A DNA stretch of 51,421 bases. Source: Candidatus Magasanikiibacteriota bacterium. GTDB taxonomy: Bacteria; Patescibacteriota; Patescibacteriia; Magasanikbacterales; GWA2-37-8. The first letter of the stretch is position 1; each line of letters begins with the position of its first letter. A program made the position numbers and the translations under genes. The stretch is taken from NCBI GenBank assembly GCA_023246655.1, contig JAHFHX010000007.1, forward strand, positions 1 to 51,421, written 5' to 3'. Positions 1,864 to 43,398 of this stretch are shown here, in pieces. The notes beneath the pieces are model-generated. The model saw only the letters and a list, made by a program, of their open reading frames with translations, was not told the DNA's origin and made no database searches.

Positions 1864-3706
<1,843 letters not shown>

Positions 3707-32947: not shown

Positions 32948-33250
32948 CATTTGTTATAACTAAGCAAGGTAACAAATAGAAATTACTTATCTTACATTAG
33001 CCAAATATAGGGTTTTGCGTCTAGATGCGTTTACAGCACATTTGGGCGTAGAACCTTAGGGTTCTATAAGTTCTTTACAATAATGGATTTGCTCAAAGTA
33101 GTGTCTTAGGGTGGAGCCAATGAGACCTTGATATTTTAGGGAATAGTAAATAGCTGTTTTCTTAAATATCAAGGTCTATGCTGCCACGCCCACCGCCATC
33201 ACGGCGAATGGGATAACGTTGCAGCAGCAGAGTTTCGCGAAGGAGGCCCC

Positions 33251-34063
33251 ATGTTGCCCGAGACCACCCCCCCCGTCATCAAGTTTGATTTTCCTTCCCT
33301 CGACGCGCAGGCTGCGATGTGGCGCCGTGTCGCCATCATCGTCGCCGTCGTCGCGACGGTGATCTGCGCCTCCCTCGGCGCCCTGGCCGGCGCCGTGCAG
33401 TACCGGCGCAACCAGGACGCCGCGGCCTGCCAGCACAACAGCGCCCCCCCCGCCGCGCAGCCGGCCGTCGCCATCGCGTCCCGGAAGGCCGTCGAGGCGC
33501 CCACGCCGTCGCCCACTCCCGCCCCGAAGGTGGCCAAGCGGCACCGCCGCACGCGCCTCACCCCGCCGGTCATCGCACCGCTCGTGATCGAGCCGGCCGC
33601 GGACCTCGCCGCGATCCTCGCTAAGTCGGGGGGCATCGGCACCGCCGGCATCCTGGCGGAGTTCCGCCCCCTCCAGCCCCGCGGCATCGGCGCCCCCCGC
33701 TTTCGATCGCTCGGCGGGCAAGACCCGACAGCTCTTGAGGAGCTCGAGGCGGCTCCAATTACCGTTCGGGGCCACCTCGAAATCGACCTCAGCGACGAGG
33801 TTGAGACGCCGCCGCAGCTGGCGGTCTTCGTCGGGGCCTTCCCCGGCGAGGAGCCTCGCGAGATGAACCTCGCCCTGCTCCACCGGAGCATCGAGCGCCG
33901 GCTTGCGGAGCTGAAGGCGAACCCGCCCCCGGCCGCGCCGGCCGAGCACGCCCCCACCTTCGTGGAGGAGCCGTGCCACCCAGTCGACGAGATGACCGGG
34001 TACTGCGCCCGCAAGAAGGCGGCCGACCCCGGGTGGGGATGGTCGCCTCCGGCCGGCAACTAA
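33251..34063 (+). CDS. GC-rich hypothetical single-TM Pro/Ala-rich protein
   Basis: SD aggagg at 33241, G/C-ending codons in this frame, TM VAIIVAVVATVICASLGALAGAV. Confidence 0.7.
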   Translation: MLPETTPPVIKFDFPSLDAQAAMWRRVAIIVAVVATVICASLGALAGAVQYRRNQDAAACQHNSAPPAAQPAVAIASRKAVEAPTPSPTPAPKVAKRHRRTRLTPPVIAPLVIEPAADLAAILAKSGGIGTAGILAEFRPLQPRGIGAPRFRSLGGQDPTALEELEAAPITVRGHLEIDLSDEVETPPQLAVFVGAFPGEEPREMNLALLHRSIERRLAELKANPPPAAPAEHAPTFVEEPCHPVDEMTGYCARKKAADPGWGWSPPAGN

Positions 34064-34208
34064 CCCCGGCACAGCAGGGGGGGCAAGGGCCGAGCAAATC
34101 CCGTCCCGCCGCACCATCGCTGGTGCAGGCGGGCGAAGTAGCGCGGGGGACGATTCAGACGTCCCCCCATCAATCCTTGTTCATAATTATATTGTGACCA
34201 GAGATTAT

Positions 34209-34245
34209 AAAAAATCCTCCCAACTAAGTTTGGGAGGATTTTTTT
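34209..34245. terminator. Bidirectional terminator
   Basis: aaaaaatcctccca...tgggaggattttttt between convergent genes. Confidence 0.8.
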
Positions 34246-38486: not shown

Positions 38487-38708
38487 AGTTTAATGCTAGA
38501 AAGTTGGTAACAATAGCACATTTTTATCTATTTGTCAAGCTGAAAGCAATCGATTTTATAATCAGGCTACCATGAGGATATGCGAAATAGAAAGCTGCGA
38601 AAGGATAATTGATTTTTCGCGTATTAAAAAAATAAAACTTCTGTTAAGAGAAGTGGGGGTGGGAGCGTGCAGCCGGCCTTGTTAGGCTAGTATGCACACT
38701 CCCGGTGG

Positions 38709-39236
38709 TCAGTGCCGGTGGTGGTGCCGGCGGTGATGCTCGTGGTGATGGTGCCGGTGTCGCTTGGGCGCCGTCGGCACGTCTGCCGGTTCGGGCTCGG
38801 CCGCTTCCGGCGTGGCGGCCTCCGCCTGGCTCGGCGGGGCAGACAGTGCCGCCGGCTGCGGTGCTGCTGCGGCCGGCGCGCTGTCAGCAGCCGCATCGGC
38901 TGCAGTTGCGCCTGCGTCCGGCGGCGGGGGCAGGTCGGCCGGAGCGGCGAGCACCGCGTCGGTCACGGCTGCGCCTGCGTCCGGCGGGACGCGCAGATCG
39001 GCGGGAGCGTGGGCCGCATCGGCCGCGGTCCCTGCGTCCGCCGCTGCGTAGCGGGGTTCCACCGGCGTGGGTGCCGGCGGGGCGGGCGAGTCGGGGATAT
39101 AGATGGCGCCCGTGATGATGAGCGCCAAGAGGAGAAGACAAAAAACTCCCACCCACGGCCTGGACCGCTCGATGAGCGGGTCCAGGTGCTTCTCGTCGAA
39201 CTGGTCCATGCGGACCAAGAGCTTTTGCAACCACAT
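38709..39236 (-). CDS. GC-rich single-TM protein with DAG repeats and a His/Arg tail
   Basis: SD aaggagga upstream of ATG 39236; TM WVGVFCLLLLALIITGAIYI; PPDAG repeats; KRHRHHHHEHHRRHHHRH. Confidence 0.7.
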   Translation of the reverse strand: MWLQKLLVRMDQFDEKHLDPLIERSRPWVGVFCLLLLALIITGAIYIPDSPAPPAPTPVEPRYAAADAGTAADAAHAPADLRVPPDAGAAVTDAVLAAPADLPPPPDAGATAADAAADSAPAAAAPQPAALSAPPSQAEAATPEAAEPEPADVPTAPKRHRHHHHEHHRRHHHRH

Positions 39237-39371
39237 GATTTTTTCCTCCTTGGTTAATTTAATAACTACCACAAAAATAGGCTTTTGTCAATGGCAGATG
39301 AGTCAAATTTTAGGTTGTGGATAAGTAGCCTTGAGAGATATAAAAAACTTTGTTATGGTAGTTATAGATTT

Positions 39372-39476
39372 ATGCACAAACATCACTCCAACAATTTGGC
39401 TCTCATTTGCAAGGTGACAAAGGTCTCCTTCATTTTGGTACGTCAATTAAAGTCTTGGGGTGAAAGTAGTCATTAA
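39372..39476 (+). CDS. Putative leader peptide MHKHHSNNLALICKVTKVSFILVRQLKSWGESSH
   Basis: Just downstream of TTGAGA-17-TATGGT; 3' end overlaps an antiterminator arm. Confidence 0.5.
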   Translation: MHKHHSNNLALICKVTKVSFILVRQLKSWGESSH

Positions 39477-39563
39477 GAAAGCTGCCAACAGATTAAGAAA
39501 GAAACAGCACTAGTGATACTAAACCATCACCCTGAAGACTAACCGTCCAGGGTGATTTTCTTT
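39451..39563 (+). promoter_or_regulatory. Attenuator-like switch 1
   Basis: agtcttggggtga/tcaccctgaagact competes with terminator atcaccctg/cagggtgat-tttcttt. Confidence 0.6.
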
Positions 39564-39589
39564 AGTAGAAAAAATTGTTCTTTACATAT

Positions 39590-39925
39590 AGTGCGTTTGG
39601 CTCAGGTTATTAAGACTCACTTAAATAAGTGATTCTGGATAACCTGAGTCAAAACACTTGCCTTGGGCAGAGAATTCTTCGGTAGAGGAAACCGGAGCTC
39701 TAGCTTTGGCAAGTGTCAACGCATTCACTCCGCTCCGAAGGGAGCGGAAAACCAACCTGAAAGGAGGTGGTTACAATGCAATGCCCCCAGGTTTGGGGGG
39801 AGGGTTTTTCCGACGAGTTTTTCCTTAAAATAACTCGTCAACCAATGAGTCTCTAAAATCTTTGGAGATTGATTGGTAGAAATTAAACCAAGCCTTTTGA
39901 TTTGGAGATCCAAAGCAAAAGGCAA
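39590..39925 (+). ncRNA. Densely structured putative RNA (leader or ncRNA)
   Basis: At least seven consecutive stems, e.g. ctcaggttat/ataacctgag, acacttgcc/ggcaagtgt, tccgctcc/ggagcgga, gacgagtt/aactcgtc, gccttttg/caaaaggc. Confidence 0.5.
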
Positions 39926-39937
39926 AGGAGGATCGAA

Positions 39938-40207
39938 TTGTCAAGCAACGGAGGCGGGGTCGCCATGACCCCGGATGAAGAAGCAAATTACACCCGGTGG
40001 CGGCACGAAAGTGCCGACACCAAGTTCAAGAGTTTTGAGCTGCTCCCCGTGCCGCAGGCCGTGATCCGTCTGCCCTGCGGCTGTACGAATGGGCGCGGCC
40101 AGGAGCAGCTCTGGGTCGAGCGTGACCCCAAGAGCCCGCAGCGGCCCGCGCCGCTCAAATGTCGCCGCTGCCAGGCGACGCTCCCCGCGGTTCCGCGCCG
40201 CCCTTGA
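39938..40207 (+). CDS. GC-rich small protein with CxC...CxxC (possible Zn ribbon)
   Basis: SD aaggagg before TTG 39938 (alternative ATG 39965); LPCGC...KCRRC. Confidence 0.55.
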   Translation: MSSNGGGVAMTPDEEANYTRWRHESADTKFKSFELLPVPQAVIRLPCGCTNGRGQEQLWVERDPKSPQRPAPLKCRRCQATLPAVPRRP

Positions 40208-40349
40208 GGAGGAATTTTTCTCTGGGAGGGTACCCAACCAATGGTGCTGCCCTCCCCCCTATATACAATTAAATTTTACTCACCAGCGAATCTCTAAAGA
40301 TATTCGGAGATTAGCTGGTGTGTAGCAATGCACCAGAAAGGAAAAAGGC

Positions 40350-40445
40350 ATGGACCCGGTGCCAATTGAATGCCCCGGCCCGTACGGGCAGCCTCGCCCG
40401 CGGCCGAAACCTCGGCCCAAACCCCTGCCTCCCAAGCCGAATTGA
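40350..40445 (+). CDS. 31-aa Pro/Arg/Lys-rich peptide MDPVPIECPGPYGQPRPRPKPRPKPLPPKPN
   Basis: aaagga SD, ATG 40350, TGA 40443; translated by hand. Confidence 0.5.
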   Translation: MDPVPIECPGPYGQPRPRPKPRPKPLPPKPN

Positions 40446-40525
40446 TCCCGCCCCGTGTGCTGGGATCGCACTCCGGGGGCCGCCGTCACACGCGGTTGTG
40501 CCCCCACTCTCCATCATTAAAAGCC

Positions 40526-40555
40526 TTGACAGGTTTATATAAAATAACATAGAAT
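40526..40555 (+). promoter_or_regulatory. Sigma70 promoter
   Basis: TTGACA-18-TAGAAT. Confidence 0.65.
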
Positions 40556-40568
40556 GTTGGAATCATTT

Positions 40569-40655
40569 ATGACCGCTTCGCAAAACTTTGTTATTATTAC
40601 GATCATTGTAGCCCTCTTGTTGCCGTGGGGTGATTATGGTGTTGTCAAAAGATAA
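40569..40655 (+). CDS. Putative attenuator leader peptide MTASQNFVIITIIVALLLPWGDYGVVKR
   Basis: Ile/Val/Leu run, starts just after the promoter, overlaps the antiterminator. Confidence 0.6.
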   Translation: MTASQNFVIITIIVALLLPWGDYGVVKR

Positions 40656-40705
40656 CGAAACACAAAACCATAATCACCCCTGAGGCAACTCGGGGGTTTT
40701 TGTTT
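40627..40705 (+). promoter_or_regulatory. Attenuator-like switch 2
   Basis: 14-bp ggggtgattatggt/accataatcacccc competes with terminator acccctgag-GCAA-ctcgggggt-ttttgttt. Confidence 0.7.
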
Positions 40706-40817
40706 AAATTGTTCTTTCCACCAGTTCTCAATCGCTCAGCCAAAAGGGAATATTGTTTCTTTTTGAATGAGCGATTGGGACGAAAGTTTTAAAAGCTCAG
40801 AGACACGAGGAGTCAAC

Positions 40818-40982
40818 ATGCCCAGTGACGAACGCCCGCTCCCCCCGTTTGCGATTGGCGACGAGCCAGTCGCCCAGGAACCCCAACCGCCCAAGAAAAA
40901 AGTGGGTGAGACTGAAGCCGAGCGCAATGCTCGTCTTCGCCACCCCGCCGGTGAGGCGGACATGTCGGATTTCCTGGTCTGA
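40818..40982 (+). CDS. GC-rich 54-aa hypothetical protein
   Basis: SD aggag before ATG 40818; followed by long hairpin cctagg...cctagg. Confidence 0.55.
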   Translation: MPSDERPLPPFAIGDEPVAQEPQPPKKKVGETEAERNARLRHPAGEADMSDFLV

Positions 40983-41147
40983 GCTTTGCGCCTAGGGCGC
41001 GCTACCCACGTCCATCACCATGGATGCGGGCGGCGCACCTAGGCCGGCTCGTTGTGAGCAAAATTAGTTTTGCTTATATCAGCTGATGTTCTAGGTAACG
41101 ATGGTGTTGCCTGGAACTAACTGACCATTTTCAGAGGAGACTAGTAA

Positions 41148-42302
41148 ATGGAAACTCGCCGGACGCGGATCGCGGTCGTGGGAGCAGGCCTCAACAGTGC
41201 CCTGCTCGCAACCGCCCTCGTCCGGGCGGGTATCGATGATTTCGTCGTCGTCGATCAATTCCCTTTCCTTAGCCGTTGGTTTAACATAATCCAGCGGCAA
41301 GGGGCAAACTCCATGTGGACGGCCTGGCCGTATCACCTGGAGTGGGGAGTGGACGAAAGTCTGCGGCGTTTTGCGGAAACGCAGGCCGTTGCCGACTTCT
41401 CGGGCAACCCGAGCGTTGCTCTGTTCAACGCTCATGCCCAAGGTGTAATTCAGGAATACCACCTCGAGCAGCACCGCCTGGCTGGGGTGGTAACTAACAT
41501 TGAACGCGGCGCAGGCGGTTGGCAGCTTACCGTGACGGGTGAGCAGCCTGCCTCCATCGAGGCGTCTCGTGTCGTCATCGCGCTCGGCATCGGCGCTCCG
41601 GCCATGCCGCTCAATGGTTGTCCGCCGTCGGCTCTGGTGAGCCATGTTGCCAGCTTGGACCTCAGTGCGCTAAAGGCGCATGACTGGCAAGGTCGCTCGG
41701 TCTTGGTGGTAGGCCGGGGTCCGTCGGCGTTTGTAGCCGCCAAGCGTTTTGCCGAAGCGGCCGCCGCGGTGACCGTGGTTGCCAAAGGCGGCAGCCTCAC
41801 CGCAACGAATGGGGACTGCGCCAGTGCTTGGCAACCACCTGCTGGGCGGCTCTACCAAGAGTTCGCTCGCCTCGGGAGCGCTGAGCGCCGGGAGCGGCTA
41901 CGCTCTGCCTGGATCACCAACACCACCGCCACAGGCGCTGCCTGGAGCGATCTACTCCGCCACTACCCAATCAACCATATCTCTACGGAGGCAGGGTTGA
42001 CTCACTGGTCCACAGCGGGTGGTGTGGTGAGGGTAGACAGCATAGGCAACTGCTTTCACCAAGTGGTGATGGCAACCGGGTACCGGTGGGATGTTGCGGA
42101 GATTGGTTTCCTTCGCAATCTCCTTCCACGCCTTCCCGTCGTAGGTGGGCTCCCCATCCTCAACCAAACCCTTGAGGCCTTACCTGGTCTTCACTTCCTT
42201 GGCGGCTTGTCCGCTTTGGAGCTGGGGCCGGCGGCGCTCGATCTTACCGGGGCTACCTACGGGGTGGGTAGGCTCCGCAACGCACTTCTTTCCCTTGTCT
42301 AG
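41148..42302 (+). CDS. FAD/NAD(P)-dependent oxidoreductase (flavoprotein monooxygenase-like)
   Basis: IAVVGAGLNS, VLVVGRGPSA, MATGY, GLHFLGGLSALELGP; SD gaggag. Confidence 0.8.
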   Translation: METRRTRIAVVGAGLNSALLATALVRAGIDDFVVVDQFPFLSRWFNIIQRQGANSMWTAWPYHLEWGVDESLRRFAETQAVADFSGNPSVALFNAHAQGVIQEYHLEQHRLAGVVTNIERGAGGWQLTVTGEQPASIEASRVVIALGIGAPAMPLNGCPPSALVSHVASLDLSALKAHDWQGRSVLVVGRGPSAFVAAKRFAEAAAAVTVVAKGGSLTATNGDCASAWQPPAGRLYQEFARLGSAERRERLRSAWITNTTATGAAWSDLLRHYPINHISTEAGLTHWSTAGGVVRVDSIGNCFHQVVMATGYRWDVAEIGFLRNLLPRLPVVGGLPILNQTLEALPGLHFLGGLSALELGPAALDLTGATYGVGRLRNALLSLV

Positions 42303-42474
42303 GGAGCACCCTGGTTCTGCACGGTTCTGCCGTAAGGAACTAACTAAGCAACTCAGCGTGAGTCGCTTCTCTCCCTAGACAACCAACAACTCATTATAAT
42401 TCCGGCGGCTTGGAGGCCGTTATTTTTTTACCAATAGTATGATATACTATTGGTAACATAATTACTTTCCTCAT

Positions 42475-43398
42475 GTGTCTTTATCTATTTCCCTGGCACT
42501 CTTGGGTTATCTGCTTTTGGCGGTAGTGTCAATTCTTGATAAGTTTATTGTCACCAATGACCGTATTAAACCAGTGGTGGTGACATTTTACTCCACCGCA
42601 CCGCTGGTGCTGCTTTTTTTATTACTTCCATTTAAAATTCAACCACTGGTGACACCTTGGGATTGGATAATAGCCCTGATAGCCGGAGGGAGTTTTACCG
42701 TTGCCCTCTTAACCATGTATATTGGTTTTGAAAAAACTAAAGTAAGTCATAGTGGCCCACTGGTTGGGGCGGCAATTCCTTTTTTTGTAACATTCCTTGG
42801 AATTTTATTGCTTCACGAACACATTGCAACCGTGCACTATGTTGGCGTTGGTTTACTCATTATCGGGTCGCTTGTTATTTCATTCGTACAAACCCGTCGC
42901 CAGCAGGGGTGGAACATTCAATCGCTCTGGGCTGTTGTCGCCGGTTTTAGTTTTGCTCTTTCCCATGTCGCTTCTAAATACCTTTATGATCGTTACGGCT
43001 TTTATAGTGGTTTTACGTGGAGCAGAGGACTGATGGGAGTGAGTGGTTTAGTTCTGCTGTTAGTTCCAACGGTGCGGGATAGTTTTAGAAAAAAATCAAT
43101 CATGCTCGGCGCTCTGCATCGGCAACACACCTCTGCTCATAAAATAATTATTGTTATTATTGATAAAGTACTTGGCACGGGAGCCGTAATACTGTTACAA
43201 TATGCCATTGCCTTGGGGAGTGTTACCCTTATTAACGCTCTTACTGGTATTCAGTATGCACTCCTTATTATTTTAGTGGCTGCCTTGTCACGATTTTCCC
43301 CCAAACTTTTTCACGAAGAATACGCGCCAGGTGAAATTATACGCGAGGTTATAGCTGTTTTTATTATTGGGGCGGGATTAGTTTTGTTAATTAGGTAA
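42475..43398 (+). CDS. EamA/DMT family transporter
   Basis: About ten TM segments in two repeats. Confidence 0.8.
   Translation: MSLSISLALLGYLLLAVVSILDKFIVTNDRIKPVVVTFYSTAPLVLLFLLLPFKIQPLVTPWDWIIALIAGGSFTVALLTMYIGFEKTKVSHSGPLVGAAIPFFVTFLGILLLHEHIATVHYVGVGLLIIGSLVISFVQTRRQQGWNIQSLWAVVAGFSFALSHVASKYLYDRYGFYSGFTWSRGLMGVSGLVLLLVPTVRDSFRKKSIMLGALHRQHTSAHKIIIVIIDKVLGTGAVILLQYAIALGSVTLINALTGIQYALLIILVAALSRFSPKLFHEEYAPGEIIREVIAVFIIGAGLVLLIR

Follow-up and report, generated by a model that had tools for sequence, protein, structure and literature searches.

The classical leader-peptide attenuators are those of the enterobacterial amino-acid operons (trp, his, leu, thr, ilv and pheA). Such attenuators are described in outline in the general accounts on which we draw (PMC1183508; PMC2965389). 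Ribosome-mediated attenuators that answer translation inhibitors are reported for Bacillus subtilis bmrCD (PMC4191407) and vmlR (PMC9226507), and an attenuator-derived small RNA and peptide, rnTrpL and peTrpL, are reported for Sinorhizobium meliloti (PMC7298713; PMC7968998). Here we discuss two elements in a stretch of 51,421 nucleotides (nt) from a Candidatus Magasanikiibacteriota bacterium (contig JAHFHX010000007.1, positions 1 to 51,421 of the forward strand; the whole stretch is called the window). Each element is probably a ribosome-mediated (leader-peptide) transcription attenuator of the trp type, and a copy of a module conserved in two Magasanikbacteria-titled families.

Patescibacteria (candidate phyla radiation) are mostly uncultured and are without amino-acid biosynthesis, the classical setting of leader-peptide attenuation, and to our knowledge almost nothing is known about gene regulation in the group. 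The module would be a defined cis-regulatory RNA that can be tested in vitro or in a surrogate host. It marks a set of GC-rich, rapidly diverging genes that are evidently regulated with care, and it hints at a wider regulatory vocabulary, made up of an TGTGGATAA promoter box, a GTTCTTT box in 5' untranslated regions (UTRs) and leaderless starts.

The two elements and their relatives

The window is contig C29 of a genome (G000) of 1.13 Mb, 44.7% GC and 32 contigs; other genomes, loci, contigs, genera and families are given by our own labels (G, L, C, g and f). Related records are titled Candidatus Magasanikbacteria, Magasanikiibacteriota or Patescibacteria. Element 1 (el1) runs from 39331 onward and element 2 (el2) from 40526 onward, and the pairing arms are named R1, R2, R3 and R4. 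A preliminary description of this DNA had placed the two elements here, and both are present, each with a promoter, a short open reading frame (ORF), a GGGTGA arm, an ATCACCC terminator and the box AAATTGTTCTTT:

39331-39336, plus strand: el1 promoter, TTGAGA, then 17 nt and TATGGT at 39354-39359; 9/12 matches, with TG before the second hexamer
39372..39476, plus strand: el1 leader ORF, ATG start, 34 codons and stop, MHKHHSNNLALICKVTKVSFILVRQLKSWGESSH
39383..39391, plus strand: el1 R1, TCACTCCAA, R3-like; can pair with R2 (9 pairs, one G-U) in minimum-free-energy folds
39455..39463, plus strand: el1 R2 core, TTGGGGTGA; extended arm 39451-39475, with TGGGGTGA at 39456-39463
39526..39564, plus strand: el1 terminator; R3 ATCACCCTG, loop and R4 CAGGGTGAT (hairpin 39526-39556), then TTTTCTTT
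39572..39583, plus strand: AAATTGTTCTTT box of el1 (core GTTCTTT), first conserved box of the downstream 5' UTR
40526..40555, plus strand: el2 promoter, TTGACA, 18 nt, TAGAAT (-10 hexamer 40550-40555); 11/12 matches
40569..40655, plus strand: el2 leader ORF, 28 codons and stop, MTASQNFVIITIIVALLLPWGDYGVVKR
40627..40639, plus strand: el2 R2, GGGGTGATTATGG, perfect 13-nt complement of CCATAATCACCCC at 40668-40680
40668..40705, plus strand: el2 R3, CCATAATCACCCC, with terminator stem 40676-40697 and T run; R3 overlaps the 5' arm of the terminator
40706..40717, plus strand: AAATTGTTCTTT box of el2

The el1 ATG lies 12 nt past the -10 hexamer and has no Shine-Dalgarno sequence. The el1 terminator hairpin is predicted at -17.4 kcal/mol and scores 73.5 bits with the covariance model described below; pairing of el2 R2 with R3 is predicted at -29.1 kcal/mol (z = -6.3, reached by 0/200 shuffles). 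A simple terminator scan listed the el2 hairpin and not that of el1, because the 13-nt loop of the latter exceeds the limit of the scan. Its yield in the region, 4 terminator-like sites where shuffles lead one to expect 5.7, makes it no evidence by itself. In a plain MAFFT alignment the two elements have little overall similarity: layout and motifs are common to both, sequence is not. They had been proposed to be paralogues, and as old paralogues they hold up, for the closest relative, G064 (locus L056), has an orthologue of each in the same order, with the leaders MHLNHSAIQTIIRKVALKVTRVYVLVLPFLSWGEYSANAL (el1) and MVSLKIQLINIINLILSWGDYGYVKK (el2).

The family to which they belong was found through a single match. 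When 40 relatives were searched by DNA with positions 39280-41150, one 43-nt match was obtained, between the el1 terminator and G011, and the G011 locus has the same layout and a related leader peptide. A pattern search followed, and then a covariance model of the terminator with GTTCTTT. Among 100 genomes of the family, the 21 best places were inspected; 19 have promoter, ATG ORF, GGGTGA and terminator, and the other two (L028, L033) are ordinary gene-end terminators. At the level of the order (151 genomes), 13 new loci were inspected and the module was found in six (L042, L044, L045, L054, L052 and L047), the other seven being plain terminators. L047 is a truncated duplicate of L052 at a contig end, which leaves five distinct leaders; a second family (f5) contributes four of these. 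Anchoring on a downstream gene of the EamA family added seven further, divergent leaders that the covariance model scores poorly.

The catalogue thus holds 31 leaders from two families of one order, with a common order of parts; helix and frame statistics below cover 24 leaders, and counts out of 31 cover the whole catalogue. Elsewhere in the class, 150 genomes drawn from about 90 further families gave no match at E <= 5e-4. The el2 type is rarer: a pattern search of 240 genomes of the order returned only G000 and G064. A pattern scan of metagenomes gave 25 stretches, of which about nine have a -35 hexamer and an upstream ORF of 29-38 codons (candidates L088, L093, L094, L098, L104, L107, L108, L109 and possibly L112; these stand outside the statistics), and the remainder have the hairpin and GTTCTTT without a leader.

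No Rfam family matches the module, whether the whole window is scanned at the gathering threshold, positions 39200-41200 at E <= 10 or 11 related loci at E <= 0.01; at these cut-offs the scans returned rRNA and tRNA only. A literature search found no description of the element. The module is a conserved candidate attenuator, backed by covariation, without an Rfam family or a published description that we could find. Its parts follow one another in this order:

Part 1: TGTGGATAA box or a one-mismatch variant, in either orientation; 29/31 copies, missing in both el2-type copies
Part 2: -35 hexamer of TTGAC type, 4-7 nt beyond the TGTGGATAA box
Part 3: ATG without Shine-Dalgarno sequence, 35-54 nt downstream of the -35 hexamer's start
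Part 4: leader ORF of 26-53 codons
Part 5: R2, AGGGTGATT-like, within the final codons of the ORF
Part 6: apical hairpin, variable
Part 7: R3 (consensus AATCACCCT), R4 (AGGGTGATT) and T run
Part 8: GTTCTT[TC] or GCTCTTT, 6-140 nt further; 29/31 copies
Part 9: UTR rich in hairpins
Part 10: strong Shine-Dalgarno sequence and GC-rich ORF; GC 0.55-0.69 at most loci, 0.42-0.45 for genus g12 and G146
Part 11: EamA-family gene in most loci, with its own TATAAT a few nt before the ATG

Judged by promoter geometry, the leader ATG would lie at, or within about ten nt of, the expected transcript start. In the window the version is an expanded one, in the order el1, Cys-pair ORF, Pro-rich ORF, el2, 54-amino-acid (aa) ORF, flavoprotein-like ORF and EamA gene. 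At one locus (L062:1856-1960) the promoter and ATGCAAA are joined straight to the UTR motif TAGAGTAGTGCG, and the leader body and terminator are gone. Since promoter and UTR are kept, this locus fits a natural deletion of the putative attenuator, the pattern of a dispensable regulatory insert.

Competing helices, the leader frame and a proposed mechanism

The 5' arm of the terminator, R3, has two complements: the 3' arm, R4, and R2, the GGGTGA arm at the end of the leader ORF. Intrinsic terminators, with predicted hairpins of -14.6 to -22.1 kcal/mol and a T run, are found in all 24 leaders. R2:R3 pairing was compared in each leader with 200 dinucleotide shuffles of the upstream sequence, and in 20/24 leaders, el2 included, 0/200 shuffles gave as good a duplex energy; in the exceptions it was reached by 5 (el1), 4 (G050), 4 (G053) and 12 (G051) of the 200. 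Changes in R3 are matched in both partners in the pair table of the 24 leaders: T to A (G047, G134) and T to C (G146) at position 3, and T to G (three g7 genomes) and T to C (G151, G143) at position 9. In G046, a C to T change at R3 position 8 is compensated by G to A in R2 and becomes a G-U pair with R4.

Pairs were counted in the 12/24 leaders that MAFFT aligned in register. For R2:R3, 92.6% of cells are paired and three pairs have changed on both sides; the covariation score is 0.231 against a shuffled mean of 0.127 (0/500 reach the observed value), and sliding the partner one to three columns lowers it to <= 0.054. For R3:R4, 92.4% of cells are paired, two pairs have changed on both sides, and the score is 0.207 against 0.116 (0/500). 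Because the leader sequences are related, these shuffle counts overstate significance, and the slid controls and lineage-by-lineage compensations are the more telling evidence. Unrefined MAFFT alignments analyzed with RNAalifold had the stems out of register and were uninformative. Covariation analysis, which had been suggested as a check on the preliminary description, supports both helices.

The leader ORF is also under constraint. It is open in 31/31 copies, and its stop falls throughout between the start of R2 and R3. Over 24 leaders the chosen frame contains 0 stops and the two alternative frames 63 and 77 (a contrast somewhat inflated, as explained below); for any single leader the chance of an open frame is 1.5-22%, and the leaders come from at least ten well-separated lineages. 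Differences in ORF length are multiples of three, and the distances from ATG to GGGT in family f1 take seven values (59, 74, 77, 83, 86, 89 and 92), all 2 mod 3. From stop codon to R3 stem the distance is 11-27 nt in 22/24 leaders, 49 nt in el1 and 59 nt in G012, and no stop is placed beyond R3. Relative to the R2 core, the stop codon lies 3-59 nt downstream in 23/24 leaders and 6 nt upstream in G012. Covariation, open frame and fixed stop position together bear out the arrangement first proposed, a leader ORF with the 5' arm of an antiterminator in its end and a mutually exclusive terminator beyond it. As far as comparison of genomes goes, the RNA switch in this reading is well supported and its dependence on the ribosome reasonably supported.

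The leader peptides, by contrast with the pairing arms, are poorly conserved; they diverge strongly except where RNA pairing constrains them. The preliminary description had seen a WG(D/E) motif in the peptides, and this has to be given up. GGGTGA is read as xxG GGT GAx (Gly-Asp/Glu) in 16 leaders, as GGG TGA or GGG TAA (Gly-stop) in three and as GGG GTG (Gly-Val) in four, and in the twenty-fourth (G012) the stop is upstream of the motif. The motif is read in all three frames, and the constraint is therefore on the RNA, with WG(D/E) as a by-product. The likeness to ilv leaders survives in part: Ile, Leu and Val make up 11/28 residues in el2 and 13/26 in its single orthologue, two sequences only, and the likeness does not extend to the el1 type. 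By eye, a hydrophobic, membrane-helix-like peptide, which a type I toxin-antitoxin system (small membrane toxin mRNA) would keep in all copies, is likewise confined to el2 and its orthologue and is not seen in the other 29 copies; antisense RNA was not searched for. The Cys-rich C-termini of the f5 leaders were considered as cores of peptide natural products; inspected by eye, a GC-rich apical hairpin (GTTGC/GCAAC) accounts for them more simply.

From the sequence elements, the two competing and covarying helices, and the conservation of open frame, stop position and gene order, we infer the following course of transcription start, leader translation, stalling and read-through. A sigma-70-type promoter would give an mRNA with AUG at, or a few nt from, its 5' end. 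R3:R4 pairing followed by the U run would form the terminator, and R2:R3 pairing the antiterminator. A ribosome at the stop codon would cover R2, allowing R3:R4 to form and transcription to stop. If the ribosome were delayed early in the ORF, R2 would be free to capture R3 and RNA polymerase would continue into the 5' UTR, with its GTTCTTT box, and through the small GC-rich genes. Most el1-type copies have, around codons 4-5, an R3-like box that could pair with R2, and termination would therefore be expected of an untranslated leader as well.

This R1 box is often AATCAC (Asn-His, codons 4-5), and in G134 it follows the ACAC variant of its lineage (AAACACTCC). Leader ORFs fold better than shuffles in 15/17 cases (z -1.6 to -4.7), the exceptions being el2 (z = +1.0) and G053 (z = -0.1), and R1 pairs with R2 in most minimum-free-energy structures. 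The el1 type is thus a candidate four-arm attenuator in which support for R1 is moderate; el2 and its orthologue may be read as a simpler, three-arm version without R1.

A ribosome stalled within codons 2-12 would leave R2 free, as happens in classical attenuators. Across 17 lineage representatives, Asn accounts for 39/187 of these codons (20.9%, against 4.2% in long ORFs of the genome, a 5-fold excess) and His for 15/187 (8.0% against 2.2%, 3.7-fold), and Asp, Glu, Gly and Pro together for 0/187. The preliminary description had proposed amino-acid or host status as the signal; our best guess is slow translation, caused by starvation or by translation stress, with the cluster of Asn and His codons in this segment as a possible place of sensing. 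That a leader senses a specific amino acid seems to us rather doubtful, and a general slowing of translation is the safer statement.

Several observations weigh against this account. The leader ORF was chosen as the open frame, so that the statistic of 0 against 63 and 77 stops is somewhat inflated, and the genomes are related, so that counts are not independent. The leader ATG has no Shine-Dalgarno sequence, and initiation there requires a leaderless mRNA or a 5' UTR of 1-10 nt. In isolation, R1:R2 pairing beats shuffles (<= 9/200) in only 9/24 leaders, and is no better than shuffles for el1 (65/200) or el2 (115/200). The Asn and His excess overlaps R1, where AATCAC is forced by pairing with GGGTGATT, and it may for this reason be structural rather than regulatory. 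The catalogue leaders share no tandem run of codons for one amino acid, unlike classical attenuators, and dependence on Asn was considered and set aside: asnS, gatB and asparagine synthase are all encoded in the genome, and there is therefore no obvious Asn dependence. The ATCACCC..GGGTGAT stem occurs in ordinary gene-end terminators here too (L028, L033), so that the switch accounts for only part of its conservation. Taken whole, the el2 leader has as its lowest-energy fold one long hairpin with the base AGCCCUC/GGGGGUU that ends at the U run, and an 'antiterminated' el2 might for that reason still terminate. The four sequencing runs that contain the stretch are all DNA, from groundwater metagenomes of one study, with no RNA run among them.

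The switch might also be real and yet be set, in place of a translating ribosome, by a trans-acting factor (protein, tRNA, small RNA or small molecule) that stabilizes R1:R2 or R2:R3, with the open frame maintained on other grounds or tolerated. Conservation is strongest at the level of RNA, with GGGTGA read in three frames; helices inside the ORF vary and, by eye, keep their pairing (CACA/TGTG, GGTCAAC/GTTGACC, ATCGAC/GTCGAT); the leader ATG is without a Shine-Dalgarno sequence; and the stem sequence is unusually fixed (ATCACCC with GGGTGAT), as a recognition site might be. Nevertheless we regard such a factor as unlikely. Length changes in multiples of three, a fixed placement of the stop, and a frame with 0 stops against 63 and 77 are not expected of an untranslated RNA; no conserved, pocket-like multi-helix junction is evident, and no Rfam model, T-box included, matches (window region at E <= 10; 11 loci at E <= 0.01). 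A different view would take promoter, ORF and terminator as an independent small gene for a small protein, a stable small RNA or, in the el2 type, a toxin-like membrane peptide; the GC-rich genes would be expressed from the GTTCTTT UTR, and R2:R3 would serve mRNA stability or control translation of the small ORF. GTTCTTT UTRs do stand directly after promoters of other GC-rich genes without a leader, in G080 a hairpin and GTTCTTT follow ordinary genes, el2 and its orthologue encode peptides with the look of single membrane helices, and terminated attenuator transcripts and leader peptides of Sinorhizobium are reported to be able to act in trans (PMC7298713). A plain terminator, however, needs no match of R2 to R3, yet the two co-vary; the peptides diverge strongly except where pairing constrains them; the module always faces the same downstream gene arrangement; and neither inspection by eye nor a promoter scan placed a promoter between terminator and downstream Shine-Dalgarno sequence in el1 or el2. 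We consider this view improbable.

Chance, in the form of two ordinary terminators after meaningless short ORFs, hardly needs to be entertained. Short ORFs are common in AT-rich spacers, a single leader is open by chance in 1.5-22% of cases, and R2:R3 pairing of el1 taken alone is reached by 5/200 shuffles. The comparative data contradict it, with 31 copies in two families in the same order of parts, covariation in both helices, and orthologues of el1 and el2 in G064. The resemblance of el1 and el2 is not due to chance. The attenuator reading could be extended to one in which the module is a translation-stress sensor that switches on fast-evolving, secreted or host-directed small proteins, including a peptide with PRP repeats, in an episymbiotic ultra-small bacterium; this we offer as a long shot. 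If it were true, leader stalling would couple the translation state of the symbiont, or the action of the Pro-rich peptide, to interaction genes, and a larger regulon of GC-rich ORFan genes would be marked out by the two shared boxes, GTTCTTT in the UTR and TGTGGATAA at the promoter.

Flanking boxes and GC-rich genes

The preliminary description had included AAATTGTTCTTT in the switch. Its core, GTTCTTT, is also found in 5' UTRs of other GC-rich genes without a leader, 10-30 nt past their -10 hexamers, and the box does not belong to the switch. The AAATTGTTCTTT 12-mer has four copies in the 1.13-Mb genome, two of them outside el1 and el2 in unrelated contexts. GTTCTTT lies within 250 nt upstream of 5/56 GC-rich and 12/952 ordinary crude gene calls, and in the UTRs of the GC-rich genes ACAA often comes directly after it, with a long hairpin and a Shine-Dalgarno sequence further on. 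Such UTR sites in G000 are:

C24 (start 36221, minus strand)
C26:4091 and C26:5214
C7:38080 and C7:76706
C16:74460
C21:1516
C18:2828

GTTCTTT is a separate 5'-UTR box and may be shared by a set of GC-rich genes. It also follows ordinary terminators in G080 and several metagenome contigs. In G080 a cassette is present twice (L007, L011), each time directly after an ordinary gene; its parts are aaattagccaaaa, a hairpin of ATCACCCC, then ATTGTTCTTT, a UTR and an ORF, GC-rich and about 200 aa long. Pairing of GTTCTTT with AAGAAC in the leader was considered and rejected by eye, as the G055 leader has AAAAAC with internal GTGTTTTT and an unchanged downstream GTTCTTT; so was a sigma-70 promoter formed by GTTCTTT or the bases after it, as the spacings are unfit. 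The motif of NusG-dependent pausing is given as -11 TTNTTT -6 on the non-template strand (PMC9963633). TTCTTT is present in 28/31 copies (the exceptions are G064el2, with GTTCTTC, and L068 and L071, which lack the box). Conservation extends to the flanking G and the central C, neither of which the pause motif requires, and a more specific reader is therefore possible.

The box upstream of the promoter, TGTGGATAA, is the reverse complement of TTATCCACA, which we take to be the DnaA-box consensus. This putative DnaA box, a match by sequence to that consensus, is present as an exact or one-mismatch 9-mer in 29/31 leaders, 13-16 nt (start to start) from the -35 hexamer. In the genome there are 38 copies of TGTGGATAA against about 11 estimated from base composition, often 5-25 nt upstream of TTGACA promoters of unrelated genes, and it looks like a general promoter-upstream site. 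The copy of el1 and further examples in G000 are:

39316..39324 of the window, plus strand: TGTGGATAA box of el1, ending 6 nt before the -35 hexamer
C16:1695
C24:23325
C27:14446
C7:53584
C31:42636

Downstream of the elements the window contains:

39584..39937, plus strand: long, hairpin-rich 5' UTR containing a third short ORF; hairpins at 39840-39880 and 39893-39925, read directly from the sequence
39776..39856, plus strand: third short ORF, MQCPQVWGEGFSDEFFLKITRQPMSL, 26 codons, strong Shine-Dalgarno sequence AAAGGAGG
39938..40207, plus strand: Cys-pair GC-rich ORF, 89 aa from TTG or 80 aa from ATG at 39965, two Cys pairs (CGC ... CRRC); proposed first gene controlled by el1
40350..40445, plus strand: Pro-rich GC-rich ORF, MDPVPIECPGPYGQPRPRPKPRPKPLPPKPN; by eye, a counterpart in the same place in G064 (L056:1667-1783)
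40818..40982, plus strand: GC-rich ORF (MPSDERPLPPFAIGDEP...), 54 aa, Shine-Dalgarno sequence GAGGAG; proposed first gene controlled by el2
41148..42302, plus strand: flavoprotein-like ORF, 384 aa, GC 0.62, Pfam Pyr_redox_2 and Pyr_redox_3
42475..43398, plus strand: EamA-family membrane protein, Pfam EamA; conserved downstream anchor

The third short ORF, whose WGE had raised the question of a further copy, has neither GGGTGA nor a TCACCC partner, and so none of the features of the module; it has an internal CCCCCA/TGGGGG hairpin followed by GAGGGTTTTT. That the downstream ORFs are GC-rich and unfamiliar, as first described, is confirmed, with GC of 0.64-0.68 against 0.447 for the genome and no known family. 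Among 27 downstream proteins none matches a Pfam family at E <= 0.001, the one weak match being to DUF5817_CT (E = 0.0022, 18.2 bits against a cut-off of 29). The 89-aa ORF is preceded by the Shine-Dalgarno sequence AAAGGAGG and has no Pfam family; its protein found only itself among 5.8 billion clusters, and its similarity to the G064 counterpart is marginal (E = 0.004). The 54-aa protein has no Pfam family and no similarity to its G064 counterpart. The Pro-rich ORF encodes 31 aa with PRPRPKPRPKP repeats, kept in position and roughly in sequence in the closest relative, and such peptides resemble the ribosome-targeting proline-rich antimicrobial peptides of animals. The best outside homologue of the flavoprotein-like protein is 30% identical, and its gene may be co-transcribed with the el2 unit. 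Recent horizontal transfer of the cargo was considered; with 30% as the best outside match of the flavoprotein and an 89-aa protein that matches only itself there is no evident donor, and recent transfer from a known donor is therefore unsupported.

Cargo proteins are 30-45% identical within genus g19. Between G000 and G064 they align marginally or not at all, while the two genomes agree in having both leaders, the Pro-rich ORF and the same order of genes. The regulator would thus be far better conserved than its cargo, an unusual pattern that points to genes under fast turnover. The EamA gene follows the module in g12, g19, g7 and g13. EamA genes in L013, L012, L016, L019 and other loci have a TATAAT-like hexamer about 5 nt before the ATG and no Shine-Dalgarno sequence, and leaderless mRNAs seem to be common in this group. 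Genus g19 has a conserved block (GGAGTGGGGTTGGTAGTTGCGCACTACTCTCCACG...) between GC-rich ORF and EamA gene (G048, G049, G051, G055, G046; L062:2200-2245), seen as similar alternative-frame translations.

GC-rich islands are found throughout the genome, as 188 stretches of 80.8 kb in total. They have 58-69% GC, make up about 7% of bases and contain ORFs mostly without known family; in the window they lie at 33161-34240, 38621-39260 and 39901-42420. An ORF in one of them (38709-39272, minus strand) has a hydrophobic segment at its N-terminus and a tail rich in His. Four contigs of G000 (C7:98944, C13:50702, C16:21816 and C18:16020) carry a repeat in which TAATTGTTCTTT precedes an GTTAATTGTTAATT-like sequence. 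The 16S rRNA gene of the window (1864-3705) is 1842 nt long against a 1533-position model and thus has about 300 nt of inserted sequence.

Comparison with described attenuators

With the enterobacterial attenuators the module shares a short leader ORF and an intrinsic terminator before the first structural gene, arms with competing 2:3 and 3:4 pairings, to which most el1-type copies may add a 1:2 pairing by an R1 that resembles R3, and a stop codon placed so that a terminating ribosome would mask R2. It differs in its genes, which are fast-evolving, GC-rich ORFs and no biosynthetic operon, in having no tandem codon run and no Shine-Dalgarno sequence, with a start at or near the 5' end, and in its upstream TGTGGATAA box, its GTTCTTT after the terminator and its Patescibacteria host. 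A leader of an ilv- or his-type biosynthetic operon finds no match in the downstream genes (0/27 with Pfam at E <= 0.001), and the Rfam His_leader model scores el2 at 17.2 bits (E = 9.1), below its gathering score of 49.

T-box and riboswitch platforms resemble the module in that terminator and antiterminator share an arm and the 5' strand of the antiterminator is G-rich (AGGGUG...). Here, in contrast, there is no aptamer or specifier domain and no Rfam hit, the T-box model having no match at E <= 10 (39200-41200) or E <= 0.01 (11 related loci), and a conserved ORF overlaps the switch.

The attenuators of bmrCD and vmlR are reported to have a leader ORF and a terminator/antiterminator before non-biosynthetic genes and to be switched on by slow translation, as is proposed here. 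For vmlR a NusG-dependent TTNTTT pause is reported as well; in the module TTCTTT lies past the terminator in 28/31 copies. The genes proposed to be controlled here do not resemble resistance factors (0/27 proteins with Pfam at E <= 0.001), the leaders yielded no known arrest motif, and, unlike bmrCD and vmlR, the module is known from sequence alone. As with rnTrpL/peTrpL, the terminated leader would be an RNA of about 190 nt encoding a small peptide and could act in trans; for the Sinorhizobium pair such a function is reported, and for the leaders of the window it is a possibility by analogy.

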